Counted from the stretch's first letter, positions 38,296 through 49,877 are shown. The stretch: DNA of 64,000 bases from Bryobacteraceae bacterium (GCA_050010695.1 JBEKKO010000007.1:3647-67646), one strand, 5' to 3'. Numbers and translations: made by a program. The notes: a model not told the origin generated them from the sequence alone.

Positions 38296-39267
38296 TCATG
38301 CGCCACTCTCCAGCCGCAGGCCGCGGAATTGGGGGAGCAGCGCAAACGGCCGGGCCAAGGCGGCGATCGGTTCACCGGTTTGCCGCACATTGCTTTCGTC
38401 GAATTCCGCCGGTTCGCCGGCGGCCAGCCGCAGATAGCCGATACGCGCCGGGTCAATCCGCATCAGGCGGCAGCAGGTCGCATCCACCGCCACCGGGTCG
38501 GTGCCCGCCACCAACACGCCCATCGGTTTGGCAACGCCCTGAATGGGGCCGTTGCCTTCCATGCCGACGATGCCATCCACCAGCGCGAACTGGCGCGGAA
38601 ACACGGTATACAGATCGGCGACCGATTCGTGGATGCCGGCCCAGTGAAGCACGTTCTTCGGCCATCCGTAGACGCCGCCGGGCACCACGCCGAACAGATT
38701 CTTCATGGCGAGTGTGGCGCCCGTCCAGTGATGTGTTTTCATCTTGGGCATAGACACCAGCAGCGCGGCTCCCAGCACGGTGTTGGGCAGATACACGCGC
38801 TTGAGCTTGGAGAACCGCCGCGGCAAATCGACCAGCGTAACCTCATCCAGGTTGAGATCGACGAAGCGATCTTCGAACCCGGGAATGGTTTGGAAATAGC
38901 CGGCGGCTTCGGCCAGGTCCATCGTATCGCGGCGATGCCCAGGGCCTTCGGCGATGGTCACCTGGGAAGCGCCCAAGGCGCGAAAGGCCTCACAGGCCGC
39001 GTGGACCAGCAGCGGGTGGGTATTGATGGCGCTTTCCGGCTCGAACTCGACCAGGTTGGGCTTGATCACCACCGGGCGGCCGCGAACCGCCAGGCGGTGC
39101 GAATCGACCAAGCGGCGCACGATATCGTAGAGACGCTGGTCATACGCCGGAGCGCGCACGATGGTGGTTTCCGGCCGCGCCCCGTGGACCGGCCGGGCAC
39201 AGCCGGCCGCCATCAGCGCCGCCGCCGAACCCGCCAGCCAATCGCGTCTTGTGATTGCTTCGCCCAT
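38296..39267 (-). CDS. DUF362 domain protein with twin-arginine signal
   Basis: TRRDWLAGSAAALMAAGCARP Tat-type signal. The remainder matches my recollection of DUF362 (VVIKPNLVEF ... MKTHHWTGATLAMKNLFG). Confidence 0.65.
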   Translation of the reverse strand: MGEAITRRDWLAGSAAALMAAGCARPVHGARPETTIVRAPAYDQRLYDIVRRLVDSHRLAVRGRPVVIKPNLVEFEPESAINTHPLLVHAACEAFRALGASQVTIAEGPGHRRDTMDLAEAAGYFQTIPGFEDRFVDLNLDEVTLVDLPRRFSKLKRVYLPNTVLGAALLVSMPKMKTHHWTGATLAMKNLFGVVPGGVYGWPKNVLHWAGIHESVADLYTVFPRQFALVDGIVGMEGNGPIQGVAKPMGVLVAGTDPVAVDATCCRLMRIDPARIGYLRLAAGEPAEFDESNVRQTGEPIAALARPFALLPQFRGLRLESGA

Positions 39268-39270
39268 GGC

Positions 39271-40128
39271 TCAAATCCAGAACGCGCACTTACCCGCCAC
39301 CGCTCCATCCGCGAGGACGCAGGTGGCGATCTCCGGCACGGTGCGGTAGGCGATGCCGGGCGGCGGTGTATAACCCGCGGGCATGCGGGCGTGAGCGGCC
39401 AGTCCCAGCCGCAGCCAGTTCAAGGCATCGGCCGAATGGCACCCATCGAGGAACCGCAAAGCCACCGCCAGAGACTGGTCCGTCTCCCGCCCGTGGCAGC
39501 CGCGCAGAGCGGCCAGGGCCATTCCGGTGGTCTCCGGATAGGCGCTCGATTCGTATCCCAAGGCCCTGGTAGACCCGTGGTTCCAGCCCCCGCCCTTGCA
39601 CATGCGATTGATCAGGAAACGGCGGCCCTCGTCAATCCGCGATTCGAGGCCAGGCGCGGGATGCAACCGGTTCTCGCGGCCGAGCGCCAGGATTCCGAGC
39701 GAGGTGGGACTCACCCACGCCGCGCTCCCCGTCACCCAGGGCCATCCCGGAGCCGCCATTTCGGGCGGAGCCTGGTTCCCCATCAGCCATTGCCGAACCC
39801 GGTACAGGGTGGTCGATTCCAGTCCCGTGGTTGCCGACAGCCAAGCTATGGCGTGCCGGTGGCGCTCCGCCCCCAGGCGCTCGGCGGGCAGCAGTCCAGC
39901 CAGCGAGGTTACCCAGCAGCTTTCTCCCACACCGGGACGTGCCTGCCACCCTCCGTCGTCCCGCTGCGCGGCACGAAGCCATTGGAGGCCGCGTTCGACG
40001 GCTGTCGAATCGCCGTCCCCCTCCAGCGCAAGCAGGGCGTAGACGGTGGGCTCGGTCCAGGAACCACCGCGGCGATAGGGCCATCCACCATCGGCGTTCT
40101 GCTGTTCGAGCAGTCTAGCTGTGGGCAT
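39271..40128 (-). CDS. Prenyltransferase/squalene-oxidase-repeat (alpha-alpha toroid) protein
   Basis: Repeated QxxDGGW-type motifs (QQNADGGWPY, QRDDGGWQA, CKGGGWNHG). 285 aa, no signal peptide seen. Confidence 0.65.
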   Translation of the reverse strand: MPTARLLEQQNADGGWPYRRGGSWTEPTVYALLALEGDGDSTAVERGLQWLRAAQRDDGGWQARPGVGESCWVTSLAGLLPAERLGAERHRHAIAWLSATTGLESTTLYRVRQWLMGNQAPPEMAAPGWPWVTGSAAWVSPTSLGILALGRENRLHPAPGLESRIDEGRRFLINRMCKGGGWNHGSTRALGYESSAYPETTGMALAALRGCHGRETDQSLAVALRFLDGCHSADALNWLRLGLAAHARMPAGYTPPPGIAYRTVPEIATCVLADGAVAGKCAFWI

Positions 40129-40181
40129 TACTTGCGCCTCCGGAGGGCGCAGGCCGGGCGGGCAACAGCGTTGCTCCGCGC

Positions 40182-47822: not shown

Positions 47823-47834
47823 CTTGAATTCAAG
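47823..47834. promoter_or_regulatory. Perfect 12-bp palindrome CTTGAATTCAAG between the membrane-protein gene and flp
   Basis: Overlaps the stop codon of the upstream gene (47830-47832). Centre is about 25 nt upstream of the flp ATG. Confidence 0.3.
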
Positions 47835-49491
47835 TCTCCGTGATCGCTCGATCACTGGTTAGTGTCTTCGTGACCTCTCGGTCACGGCCTGATCCGCCGC
47901 AGGTGGCGGCGGAAGTTCGATCCCCCAACGTCTGGCCGCGGGCCCGGAATAGGAGCGCCACGCCATCGTCATACACCACCCGCCACCGGCACGACTCCTT
48001 CAGGGCGCCGGTCAGCGGCGAGTTGGGGGGCATTAAAACCGTGTCCACTCCGAACCGGGCCAAGGTCTGCTCCCAGCCGTAGTTGACATTGAGAACGTCG
48101 AGCTGTTTGGTCTCGAAATCGTCCCCGTAGAAATCGCTTCGCCCGTCCACGAACACTCTGGACTGCGGATAGAGGCGGTAGATCAGATAGTCGCCCCATT
48201 GATCGTAAGTGAAGACCCGCGCCGCCGGATACCGCCCCAGCGCGCTCACGGCGCCGGCGGGATAATGCGCCGGATCGAATTCGGCCCGGAACGCCTTGGG
48301 CGGATTGGGCGCGTACAGCAACGCCGCCACCAGCGCCACGCCCGCCAGGCTCACCAGATGCCAGCGCCCGATGGCGTCGGTCTCGCTGGTTTCCCGGATC
48401 AGGCGATTGATGCGCACGGCTGCCTGCTGCAGCCAAGCCGCCAGCGGGGCTGCCGGCAGTCGCCGCAGGCCGGCGTCCGCGACGGCTGCCACCATGGGCG
48501 CCGCCACGATGGCGAAAATCGGAATATGGCGCGCCGCCACCAGCGCCAGGTGAGCCCACACCAAAAACAACAGCGGTTCGGTGTAGCTGCCGCGCCGCGC
48601 GTACCACGCCCCGGCGAGCACTCCACCCACCAGCAGGGTCTCGAAGAAGACCGCAACGGGCGAATGGAAACTCACCGAAAGGAATTCCATGATGTGGTCG
48701 GCCTGGAACGGATCGCGCAGATACTGCCATACGTGCATGTGCAGGTGGTAGGTGTATGGATTCAGCAAGCTTGCCGCCAGGCACGCCAGCGCGCTCAGGA
48801 AGTACTTTCCCGCGCGATTGAGACCCGCCGCGCGACCTTCGTTCCCGGCCGCCAGCAGAACCTGCAACAACTCCGCCGCGCCGAAGACCGAGATCATCAG
48901 CACGCCCACCAGAAATCCACCGTGCAGATTGGTCCACACCACCGTCAACACCGGCAGCAGCGCCAGCCACGGGATCCCCGCCATCCGCGTGTGCCCTTCC
49001 CGCACGCGATCAAGCGCGCTCAGGAAGATCACCGCGAACAACAGCGTGAACAGGTGTGGCCGCGCCAGCCAATGAACCGAAGACGCCGCCATCGCCAGGA
49101 TCGTCACCACCACCGCCAGAACCGCATTCGACTTGCGCCGCGCCAGGCGGAACAACAGCGTGAAGGTCACCGCCAGCAGCAGCACCGCGAACAACGAAAC
49201 CGCAGCCAGACCGCCGATCGAGTTGAGACCGGCGAAGATCACGTCCGACAGCCACTCCCACGCATACCAGACGCTGTCCGGCTTGGAATACGAGAACAAG
49301 TCCCGATACGGCACCGCGTGATGCTTTAGAATCCACTCGCCGGTGCGAATGTGCCAGCCCGTGTCGCAATCGCCCAGCAAAGTAACCAGCCCGTTCATAC
49401 GCCCAAACAACAACACCATCGGCATCAAGAACGCGATGTCCGCCAGCGAAGGCAGCAGCTTGACCGCAACTCTTGAATCAGCCGTGTCCAT
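47830..49491 (-). CDS. Polytopic GT-C-like membrane protein with a periplasmic C-terminal domain
   Basis: 553 aa counted from the ATG at 49491 (5 nt after the PilZ stop). Acidic D-x-D (GDCDTGWHIRTGE) after the first TM, about 10 or more TM segments, and a soluble C-terminus (YDQWGDYLIYRLYPQSRVFVDGRSDFYG). Family assignment is tentative. Confidence 0.6.
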   Translation of the reverse strand: MDTADSRVAVKLLPSLADIAFLMPMVLLFGRMNGLVTLLGDCDTGWHIRTGEWILKHHAVPYRDLFSYSKPDSVWYAWEWLSDVIFAGLNSIGGLAAVSLFAVLLLAVTFTLLFRLARRKSNAVLAVVVTILAMAASSVHWLARPHLFTLLFAVIFLSALDRVREGHTRMAGIPWLALLPVLTVVWTNLHGGFLVGVLMISVFGAAELLQVLLAAGNEGRAAGLNRAGKYFLSALACLAASLLNPYTYHLHMHVWQYLRDPFQADHIMEFLSVSFHSPVAVFFETLLVGGVLAGAWYARRGSYTEPLLFLVWAHLALVAARHIPIFAIVAAPMVAAVADAGLRRLPAAPLAAWLQQAAVRINRLIRETSETDAIGRWHLVSLAGVALVAALLYAPNPPKAFRAEFDPAHYPAGAVSALGRYPAARVFTYDQWGDYLIYRLYPQSRVFVDGRSDFYGDDFETKQLDVLNVNYGWEQTLARFGVDTVLMPPNSPLTGALKESCRWRVVYDDGVALLFRARGQTLGDRTSAATCGGSGRDREVTKTLTSDRAITET

Positions 49492-49496
49492 AAAAA

Positions 49497-49877
49497 TCAC
49501 GCCATCCAAGCCGGAGACTGTACATCCTCCGTCGCATGCAACCGGTCGTGAAATGCCCGAAAATCCATGTAATTGACCCTGAGCGCCACCAGCGGATACC
49601 CGCGCCCGGAGTCCGTCACCCGCACTACCGTTCCCTGGCAGTGAATGCACTTCTGCCCAAATCCGTGATTCGCCGGCAACTCCAGTTCGAGCGTCAGTAT
49701 CTGCCCCAGCGACGGCACCGGCAGCGTTTCGTCTCCCCCCTGCCACGTCACCAGGAGGCCGCTGCGACTGATGTTCTCGGTATACAAAGCGCTGCGCAGC
49801 CAAAGCGCCGGTGACGTGACATGGCACCGGAGTTGGATTTCAATCCGCGGGCTTTCGCGCCGGTTGATATTCCTCAT
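49497..49877 (-). CDS. PilZ domain protein (c-di-GMP receptor)
   Basis: Both PilZ signature motifs are present: RRESPR (RxxxR) and NISRSG (D/NxSxxG). 126 aa, single domain. Confidence 0.8.
   Translation of the reverse strand: MRNINRRESPRIEIQLRCHVTSPALWLRSALYTENISRSGLLVTWQGGDETLPVPSLGQILTLELELPANHGFGQKCIHCQGTVVRVTDSGRGYPLVALRVNYMDFRAFHDRLHATEDVQSPAWMA

Follow-up and report, generated by a model that had tools for sequence, protein, structure and literature searches.

A 64,000-nt window from the genome of a Bryobacteraceae bacterium (GCA_050010695.1, JBEKKO010000007.1:3647-67646), analysed here as a whole and used as the frame for all unprefixed coordinates below, carries at 38296-49877 a pilus locus in which a canonical Tad (type IVc, Flp) assembly core is embedded in lineage-specific accessory modules. 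The accessory gene set is conserved and apparently represents an undescribed Tad variant. The arrangement is not peculiar to the window and is the standard form of the locus across the order Bryobacterales (Acidobacteriota). The strongest new point is a genetic link across phyla between Tad operons and an unnamed family of membrane proteins with a GT-C glycosyltransferase fold, which is represented in the window by a gene that we call MEMB. We read the locus as a Tad pilus operon with a built-in periplasmic glycosylation module, possibly gated by cyclic di-GMP (c-di-GMP) and probably acting on the pilin Flp, which we infer to be the substrate; we put the probability of this reading at roughly 55%.

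A previous description of the window, generated by a model from the DNA alone (hereafter the sequence-only reading), had listed thirteen minus-strand open reading frames (ORFs) in the block and judged them to be one functional unit rather than chance neighbours. All of the coordinates were reproduced, and the twelve intergenic gaps that we recomputed (5, 26, 242, 0, 22, 15, 0, 2, 15, 69, 53 and 3 nt) matched exactly. The unit also takes in a divergent LuxR-type response regulator at 50361-51107 that was absent from the ORF list. Where genes lie 0-26 nt apart or overlap, translational coupling is suggested, and no convincing terminator was found inside the gene train, where a consensus terminator scan did not exceed the shuffled control.

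The judgement that the genes belong together was supported by synteny. By alignment of MEMB we retrieved 80 loci with 10-kb flanks, the best 80 of at least 587 confirmed hits among at least 600 pattern matches. Their titles mostly named metagenome-assembled genomes (MAGs) of Bryobacterales, Bryobacteraceae, Solibacter and Solibacteraceae, the rest carrying Terriglobia or Acidobacteria labels and a few the labels of other phyla. All window proteins were searched against these loci by tblastn, and presence was counted as the loci having a gene over the loci long enough to show it. A collinear block was found in nearly all of the 80 loci, down to 49% MEMB identity, with the order of divergent LuxR-type regulator, PilZ, MEMB, flp, cpaB, cpaC, cpaE, cpaF, tadB, tadC, mini-ORF(s), toroid and DUF362 retained. 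The regulator was conserved and divergent in 75/77 loci and PilZ stood directly upstream of the GT-C gene in 76/79; flp was present in 77/79, cpaB in 77/78, tadC in 64/65, the toroid gene in 57/65 and the DUF362 gene in 55/62. On the outer flanks, a GH39 gene was kept in 5/71 loci and a DUF2007 gene in 0/61. Because the block genes are kept while the outer flanks are lost, the regulator and DUF362 mark the sharply defined ends of a conserved unit, and the synteny counts rule out that the whole arrangement arose by chance.

MEMB (47830-49491, minus strand) is a 553-aa polytopic membrane protein for which the public JGI gene call places the start six codons further upstream, at 49509. It had no match in Pfam or NCBIfam, the GT-C models of both included, and a sequence-only search of the PDB gave nothing useful. 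We then built an AlphaFold 2 (AF2) model from 37 sequences, which reached a mean predicted local distance difference test score (pLDDT) of 69.6 and a predicted template modelling score of 0.70, with pLDDT of 80-95 in the transmembrane core. When this model was compared with the PDB by Foldseek, the top 12 matches were all GT-C enzymes (AglB, STT3, ArnT and Pmt4) with probabilities of 0.99-1.00, the first eleven at 1.00. A D41-x-D43 motif was invariant in the 37 sequences, and a 'DGDTG' motif was retained in the alignment of distant family members. The loop that carries the DxD motif follows transmembrane helix 1, spans 55 residues and is acidic (outside), and the loop after it is basic (inside), in keeping with GT-C enzymes, whose first outward loop holds a catalytic acidic motif. 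A WWDYG-type motif was not noticed, although no search was aimed at it. The model thus predicts a GT-C glycosyltransferase fold for MEMB, and the 'GT-C-like' label given by the sequence-only reading was borne out at the fold level. The family to which MEMB belongs comprises 20,970 clusters at 50% identity (E<=1e-3), or 1,526 at E<=1e-30; no Pfam domain was found in ten distant members, and one distant member has C-terminal TPR repeats. Elsewhere in the window and positionally unrelated to the tad block, a second large GT-C-type membrane protein of 723 aa is encoded at 26291-28462 (minus strand), in which PMT_2 and F5/8 type C (discoidin) matches both remained below the Pfam cut-offs.

A metagenome scan seeded with distant MEMB members yielded 80 further loci, 68 of which hold homologues less than 45% identical to MEMB of the window. 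The distant homologues that stand beside tad genes are 30-38% identical to it, and the distant and local alignments were homologous end to end (hhalign probability 100% over 505 columns). Two or more tad genes were located within 8 kb in 15 of the 21 distant loci with at least 12 kb of flank, and at least five gene orders were seen among the tad-linked ones: MEMB followed by a regulator, flp and cpaB; tadB and tadC followed by MEMB; tadC followed by MEMB after about 5 kb; MEMB convergent with the series cpaF, tadB and tadC, in which tadC is nearest to it; and MEMB followed by flp and cpaB.

One distant homologue (locus L093) has relatives named from Desulfobacterales and Thermodesulfobacteriota MAGs, and we looked up five of these relatives, 53-66% identical to it, with their Pfam-annotated contexts. 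Complete tad operons adjoined four of the five. Two of the relatives lie upstream of flp-flp-A24, one of them with a GT2 gene between: in P0460 the order is MEMB, flp, flp, Peptidase_A24, TadE, RcpC, secretin, TadG, TadZ, TadA, TadB and TadC, and in P0494 it is MEMB, a PDDEXK_3 nuclease-like gene, GT2, flp, flp, A24, RcpC, secretin, an unnamed 98-aa gene, TadE, TadE, TadG, TadZ and TadA. In P0440 and P0472, TadB and TadC are followed by MEMB, DUF192, a PMT_2/TMEM260-like GT-C gene and, further on, GT2, with two unnamed genes between TadC and MEMB in P0472. The remaining relative, P0501, belongs to a glycan cluster of GT1, GT2 and DUF2079 genes without tad genes. GT2, PMT_2/TMEM260-like and DUF2079 genes adjoin MEMB homologues, and the GT2 genes beside some homologues are of the DPM1/GtrB-like type, which is contextual support for a polyprenyl-phosphate-linked sugar donor. 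In sum, the MEMB family is repeatedly, though not always, tied to Tad operons and usually accompanied by genes for polyprenol-dependent glycosylation. Recurrence of the head and tail genes beside tad genes, which the sequence-only reading had proposed to look for in other Acidobacteriota, was found for head and tail alike in the Bryobacterales loci and for the GT-C family alone outside this clade, where PilZ, the toroid and DUF362 were not seen beside tad genes. In two distant tad loci, a small DUF192 protein follows the MEMB homologue with overlapping stop and start codons (L167:10824-11168 and L168:11572-11913) and is itself followed by a PMT_2/TMEM260-like GT-C gene, which may be another recurrent partner set.

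The gene immediately downstream of MEMB in the window encodes a 60-aa Flp-type prepilin (47621-47803, minus strand) with the leader MTYLRNLWNDEQG, a mature part beginning with QDLIEYTLLLAFVALASAALF, and a Ser/Thr/Ala-rich C-terminal tail that ends in Ser. Its processing site reads ...EQG/QDLIEYTLLLAFVALASAALF, where the motif G/QDLIEY fits the G/xxxxEY pattern and the mature N-terminus is hydrophobic. The Pfam model gave no score at E<=0.01 and no NCBIfam match was obtained; the protein is similar to the Pfam-annotated Flp_Fap proteins of a distant MEMB locus (L163). Across 85 distinct orthologue sequences, the leader and the hydrophobic core were invariant and the tail was variable, rich in Ser, Thr, Ala and Asn, and almost always Ser-ended. 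An orphan flp-like gene is also present in the window at 19711-19923 (plus strand), ahead of a gene (20000-21436) for a secreted protein of 478 aa that has no Pfam match. It reads ...FWCTEQA/QDMVEYTLILAFLVLG...IWSGTTTTLSTAGSVASGS, with Ala in place of Gly at the predicted cleavage site and a Ser/Thr-rich, Ser-ended tail as in the main Flp.

Between flp and cpaB lies a spacer of 242 nt (47379-47620, minus strand) that is predicted to form several hairpins as a structured RNA. Its minimum free energy was -120.2 kcal/mol (z=-4.87), and none of 200 shuffled sequences folded as well. Among the nine closest loci the spacer showed 83% column identity and seven compensatory pairs, and the equivalent spacer was over-structured across 75 loci (mean z of -2.98, below -2 in 55/75). 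Rfam gave no match anywhere in 37000-51000, this spacer included. We also considered a sequence-conserved RNA family and rejected it, as nhmmer matched the spacer in the 10 closest loci only and structuredness was the one general property. The spacer is probably an attenuator or mRNA-stability element that sets the ratio of pilin to machinery, and, given how strongly it is structured, the gene train probably has one promoter with graded output, perhaps by attenuation.

At the head of the train, a stand-alone PilZ protein of 126 aa (49497-49877, minus strand; PF07238, E=2.7e-8, 34.5 bits against a cut-off of 22.5) precedes MEMB by 5 nt, or overlaps it by 13 nt when the public MEMB start at 49509 is used. 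Both c-di-GMP-binding motifs could be read from its translation, RxxxR as RESPR within RRESPR (R7-R11) and [D/N]xSxxG as NISRSG. The PilZ-MEMB pairing was seen only in the Bryobacterales-type locus, and on sequence grounds we infer that PilZ possibly acts in this locus by c-di-GMP gating. Upstream of PilZ, the divergent intergenic region of 483 nt (49878-50360) is AT-richer, with a GC content of about 0.53, and contains sigma-70-like sites with consensus matches at 50186-50157 on the minus strand and 50250-50278 on the plus strand, which are putative promoters for both directions. The plus-strand gene beyond it (50361-51107) encodes a NarL/LuxR-type response regulator (Pfam GerE, E=2.9e-16, and Response_reg; NarL-like NCBIfam matches) and is likely the transcriptional regulator of the locus.

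The part from cpaB to tadC is textbook, as the sequence-only reading had stated, and domain searches recovered its components in the classical order, all on the minus strand. They are CpaB/RcpC (46503-47378; PF16976, E=6e-26; TIGR03177, E=1.8e-56 with 191 bits against a cut-off of 71), the CpaC/RcpA secretin (44934-46502; Secretin, E=4e-45, with T2SS-T3SS_pil_N and BON domains), CpaE/TadZ (43742-44911), the secretion ATPase CpaF/TadA (42365-43726; T2SSE, E=5.8e-60) and the platform proteins TadB (41393-42364; T2SSF, E=2e-16) and TadC (40446-41390; T2SSF, E=1e-20). CpaE/TadZ is a ParA/MinD-type ATPase with a receiver-like N-terminal domain (AAA_31, CbiA and a weak Response_reg match), for which the NCBIfam matches to CpaE_hom_Actino and MinD were below the cut-offs. 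CpaF was 75-98% identical across the 80 Bryobacterales loci.

Several standard Tad genes, which had already been noted as missing, were likewise not recovered by our searches. No A24 prepilin peptidase (TadV/CpaA) was found in the block or the 64-kb window, either by Pfam scans of hydrophobic candidate ORFs or by tblastn with the A24 protein of locus L163 (best E=0.58). For TadE and TadG, tblastn with the distant L163 queries, a weak test, gave chance-level matches only in the window, and no scanned ORF had a TadE or Tad Pfam match. TadD, RcpB and TadF were also not found in the block or the window. Since neither a prepilin peptidase nor pseudopilins were found in the window, these are presumably encoded elsewhere in the genome.

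Directly after tadC, two mini-ORFs of 29 aa each follow on the minus strand, both of which the sequence-only reading had listed. Mini-ORF 1 (40341-40430; MEYVQGLLWLVAGGMIYLFLRRRRARRTR) comprises a single transmembrane helix and an Arg-rich tail, and mini-ORF 2 (40182-40271; MSILGALWLAAGITLVMVIGRRRRRKPTR) is its paralogue with a good ribosome-binding site, AAAAGGAG. At least one such ORF (~31 aa) with the pattern M..xIQxxIWLxAGxxLxxxLxRRRxRR was found in 57/57 tadC-toroid spacers (one in 18 loci, two in 38 and three in 1), and in only 1.3% of random 410-nt windows from the same loci. The mini-ORFs were retained in loci without toroid and DUF362. They are real conserved genes, and the public JGI gene calls for the locus of the window (L165/L166) include all the large block genes and neither mini-ORF. 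No Pfam or NCBIfam assignment was obtained, with weak resemblance to C-terminal sorting-signal models, and the G/xxxxEY prepilin motif is absent. The genes for an exosortase (EpsH, PF09721) and for a DUF3485 protein of the EpsI family are neighbours at 12636-14292 (minus strand), and the genome thus has a PEP-CTERM sorting system, whose signals share with the mini-ORFs a helix followed by an Arg tail; nevertheless, the mini-ORFs were rejected as exosortase substrates because the peptides have neither a PEP motif nor a passenger domain.

A different mini-ORF family of 24-28 aa (MDINxxILLLVIAIELALIYTKLKR) was found directly after tadC in low-GC loci of about 41-46% GC (L083:6270, L093:7085-7159, L105:3324, and L130:2471 and 2595, the last two being a tandem pair). 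Because mini-ORFs occur after tadC in two unrelated lineages, small proteins with a predicted N-out/C-in topology in this position look like an overlooked feature of some Tad loci. Between the two mini-ORFs of the window (40272-40340, minus strand) we noted a GC-rich hairpin, CCGGGCC-TTCCAAGAG-GGCCCGG, without a T-run, which could be an mRNA processing or stability element.

The tail consists of two genes separated by 3 nt. The first (39271-40128, minus strand) encodes a 285-aa single-domain alpha/alpha toroid with QW-like xxDGGW repeats and weak SQHop_cyclase matches. A profile search of the PDB gave squalene-hopene cyclase (E=4.7e-16), and an AF2 model (pLDDT 84) was matched by Foldseek to class II terpene cyclases, the farnesyltransferase beta subunit, the glycan hydrolase MmpH and complement TED, so that profile and model agreed on the toroid fold proposed by the sequence-only reading. 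There is no DxDD in the 285-aa sequence and no Asp quartet among the invariant columns. We accordingly ruled out a class II terpene cyclase, and the protein should not be filed as a cyclase. It has no signal peptide. The second gene (38296-39267, minus strand; PF04015, E=7e-51) encodes a DUF362 protein with the twin-arginine (Tat) signal TRRDWL, as had been reported, and in addition a lipobox, AAGC. Among orthologous ORFs the Tat motif was found in 43/55 and the lipobox in 41/55, and we read the 12 ORFs without a Tat motif as over-extended longest ORFs. Judged by these signals, DUF362 is a conserved lipoprotein with predicted Tat export, and the 3-nt gap together with a signal on one partner only suggests Tat co-export of the toroid. 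A sequence-only PDB search with DUF362 gave nothing useful. DUF362 and LarA/DUF2088 share the Pfam clan CL0471 (PMC11770544), the clan thus including cofactor-bearing LarA enzymes, and the DUF362 domain is elsewhere fused to CBM9 and dockerin.

About six Bryobacterales loci have, in place of toroid and DUF362, an unrelated and itself conserved polytopic membrane protein, MEMB2, with a length of 464-507 aa; two examples (L045:19584-21107 and L073:19368-20762) are 43% identical to each other. MEMB2 has no Pfam or NCBIfam match, and hhalign (probability of about 0.1-0.2%) excluded it as a paralogue of MEMB. The order is permuted in L131 (flp, toroid, MEMB, DUF362), and in L151 MEMB is followed by a TMEM260-like GT-C gene, a methyltransferase, a GT2 and then a toroid-like gene. 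The tail is a swappable module that, judging by its replacement and permutations, is associated with the GT-C gene and not with the pilus motor. Beyond DUF362, the region on its 3' side is not unusually structured (z=-0.06), and an unrelated DUF2007 zinc-ribbon protein, a 201-aa ORF and a Ser/Thr kinase follow after 265 nt. The DUF2007 protein (37686-38030, minus strand, 114 aa), not conserved beside the block in other genomes, gave a sub-threshold NCBIfam match to 'zinc ribbon-containing (seleno)protein DG' (E=2e-9, 37.6 bits against a cut-off of 130).

We propose that these parts would work together as follows. The response regulator would switch on a single leftward promoter, and PilZ would bind c-di-GMP and gate either the adjacent GT-C enzyme or the CpaF/TadZ motor. 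At the periplasmic face, the GT-C enzyme, in the manner of TfpW on type IVa pilin, would transfer a sugar from a polyprenyl-phosphate donor onto the Ser/Thr-rich C-terminal tail of Flp, either ahead of fibre assembly or in its course. The structured spacer after flp would keep pilin mRNA high and machinery mRNA lower, and the fibre would be assembled by CpaB, CpaC, CpaE, CpaF, TadB and TadC, with the two N-out/C-in mini-proteins associating with the inner-membrane platform. The signal-less toroid would be co-exported with, or work beside, the Tat lipoprotein DUF362, and the two would form a periplasmic glycan- or polyprenyl-handling module serving the GT-C enzyme. There is a precedent in TfpW, a GT-C enzyme encoded beside pilA that glycosylates the pilin on Ser/Thr (bioRxiv 10.1101/2020.04.19.049825), and Flp glycosylation has been proposed in Aggregatibacter actinomycetemcomitans, as cited in PMC12307814.

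Several observations weigh against pilin glycosylation by this locus. The C-terminal ~150 residues of MEMB were poorly modelled, and the TM-scores of its fold matches were only moderate (0.34-0.46). No polyprenyl-phosphate sugar synthase (GT2) or flippase is encoded inside the block, and the Caulobacter Tad pilus shows no glycan density (PMC10710030). All source organisms are uncultured MAGs, and since PilZ, the toroid and DUF362 are limited to the Bryobacterales-type locus, their link to the tad genes could partly reflect shared ancestry. The Flp proteins beside distant MEMB homologues (L121 and L163) lack the Ser/Thr-rich tail, which weakens the inference of Flp as the substrate, and some family members belong to glycan clusters without tad genes (L161 and the long loci L104, L126 and L136).

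The last two observations also speak for an alternative in which the GT-C enzyme, with the toroid and DUF362, does not act on the pilin and builds or decorates another envelope glycoconjugate that is co-expressed with the pili under c-di-GMP control, in the manner of holdfast-plus-pilus coupling. Candidate products would be an adhesive polysaccharide, a lipid or a lipopolysaccharide-like molecule, or the secretin or other proteins of the pilus machine. L161 is a pure glycan cluster of GT1, GT2 and DUF2079, the L093 homologue adjoins LtaS/sulfatase-type envelope enzymes, and many MEMB homologues stand after tadC and not beside flp. PilZ partners, moreover, classically gate polysaccharide synthases such as BcsA and Alg44. 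However, flp follows MEMB immediately or after a short distance in the Bryobacterales form and in L163/L164, as it does in L169, where PDDEXK_3 and GT2 stand between them; MEMB also lies within the flp-toroid-MEMB-DUF362 cassette of L131, and the block has no polysaccharide export genes (Wza, Wzc or Wzx). We regard this alternative as the most serious competitor, yet a rather unlikely one.

Decidedly less probable is a non-enzymatic role of the tail, in which DUF362 and the toroid, perhaps with the mini-proteins, would be structural substitutes for TadE, TadF, TadG and the pilotin-type lipoprotein TadD/RcpB. The failure to find any of these five in the block or the window would be explained in this way; DUF362 is a conserved lipoprotein, mini-ORFs stand right after tadC in two unrelated lineages, and the tail occupies the position of tadD-tadG, which follow tadC in the classical loci of A. 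actinomycetemcomitans and Pseudomonas aeruginosa. A pilotin role is, however, hard to reconcile with the replacement of the pair by a polytopic inner-membrane protein in about six loci. Furthermore, DUF362 belongs to an enzyme clan (LarA-like) and is elsewhere fused to carbohydrate-binding modules, in L131 and L151 the toroid gene accompanies the GT-C gene, and the mini-ORFs have no prepilin motif. The least probable explanation is that head and tail have only been inherited alongside the tad core and share no function with it, as the origin of all 80 genome loci from one order-level clade and the absence of PilZ, toroid and DUF362 beside tad genes outside the canonical type might suggest. Against it stand the complete decay of the outer flanks at the same divergence, the translational coupling suggested by gaps of 0-26 nt or overlaps, the permuted L131 cassette that keeps four genes together and the re-association of the GT-C family with tad in several independent gene orders; for the GT-C gene this explanation is largely refuted.

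Tad pili are among the most widespread bacterial adhesion organelles, and Acidobacteria are dominant and poorly understood soil organisms. Modified Flp1 has reportedly been seen in A. actinomycetemcomitans, the route of modification having stayed open since, and we know of no dedicated Flp-modifying enzyme. A GT-C family that tracks tad operons across phyla is a concrete candidate for this step, and through the PilZ partner c-di-GMP may act directly on how the pilus is decorated or assembled. As the family counts ~21,000 clusters without a Pfam or NCBIfam model, naming it would improve the annotation of very many genomes, and the conserved unannotated mini-proteins mean that standard gene calling misses parts of Tad loci. 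A broader and quite tentative extension, which we consider possible and would not expect to hold in full, is that the 520-560-aa MEMB proteins are a widespread Tad-dedicated GT-C family and the first dedicated Flp glycosyltransferase, which in Bryobacterales would be gated by PilZ and c-di-GMP and served by the toroid and DUF362, and that the post-tadC proteins of ~25-30 aa would be platform components in at least two lineages.

Among known systems, the closest parallel to the proposed pilin modification is TfpW of P. aeruginosa group IV, which has the accessory protein TfpX. The gene of TfpW likewise adjoins that of the major pilin and encodes a polytopic GT-C-type protein, in which loop 1 is periplasmic and the C-terminal domain large, a likeness at the level of position and fold class only. 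TfpW differs in serving type IVa pili, whereas here the system is a Tad system, the enzyme gene precedes that of the pilin and has PilZ as its partner, and no donor-synthesis genes are adjacent in the window. TfpO/PilO and PglL (P. aeruginosa 1244 and Neisseria) also perform pilin-directed periplasmic glycosylation, and as TfpO glycosylates the C-terminal Ser148 of the pilin in P. aeruginosa 1244, the nearly always Ser-ended Flp orthologues are comparable; those enzymes, however, have a Wzy_C/O-antigen-ligase domain, of which there was no Pfam match here. The GT-C_A enzymes AglB/STT3/PglB, ArnT and PMT/TMEM260 gave the best structural matches and share the DxD in the first extracytoplasmic loop, and PMT_2/TMEM260-like genes are frequent neighbours of family members; in sequence, however, MEMB matches none of the Pfam or NCBIfam GT-C models and no PDB entry.

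The head of the locus resembles the PilZ-gated glycosyltransferases BcsA and Alg44 and the PilZ proteins that regulate type IV pilus ATPases (PilZ-FimX-PilB) in having a stand-alone PilZ with intact motifs, coupled to a glycosyltransferase-like gene inside a pilus operon. We are not aware of any PilZ that is paired with a GT-C enzyme or located in a Tad locus; in an incomplete literature search, made mainly at the level of titles and abstracts, neither a GT-C or PilZ partner of Tad loci nor the other head and tail genes were described, in agreement with the statement of the sequence-only reading that these belong to no Tad locus description known to it. Compared with the classical Tad/Flp loci (flp-rcpCAB-tadZABCDEFG of Aggregatibacter, cpa of Caulobacter and flp-tad-rcp with pprAB of P. 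aeruginosa), the locus shares the Flp motif, the core genes and the classical order. The response regulator PprB adjoins the P. aeruginosa Tad locus much as the divergent regulator does here. Unlike the classical loci, the block and the window yielded no TadV/CpaA, TadD, RcpB, TadE, TadF or TadG, and the locus carries instead a PilZ protein, a GT-C enzyme, two mini-proteins, a toroid and a Tat-DUF362 lipoprotein as extra components.

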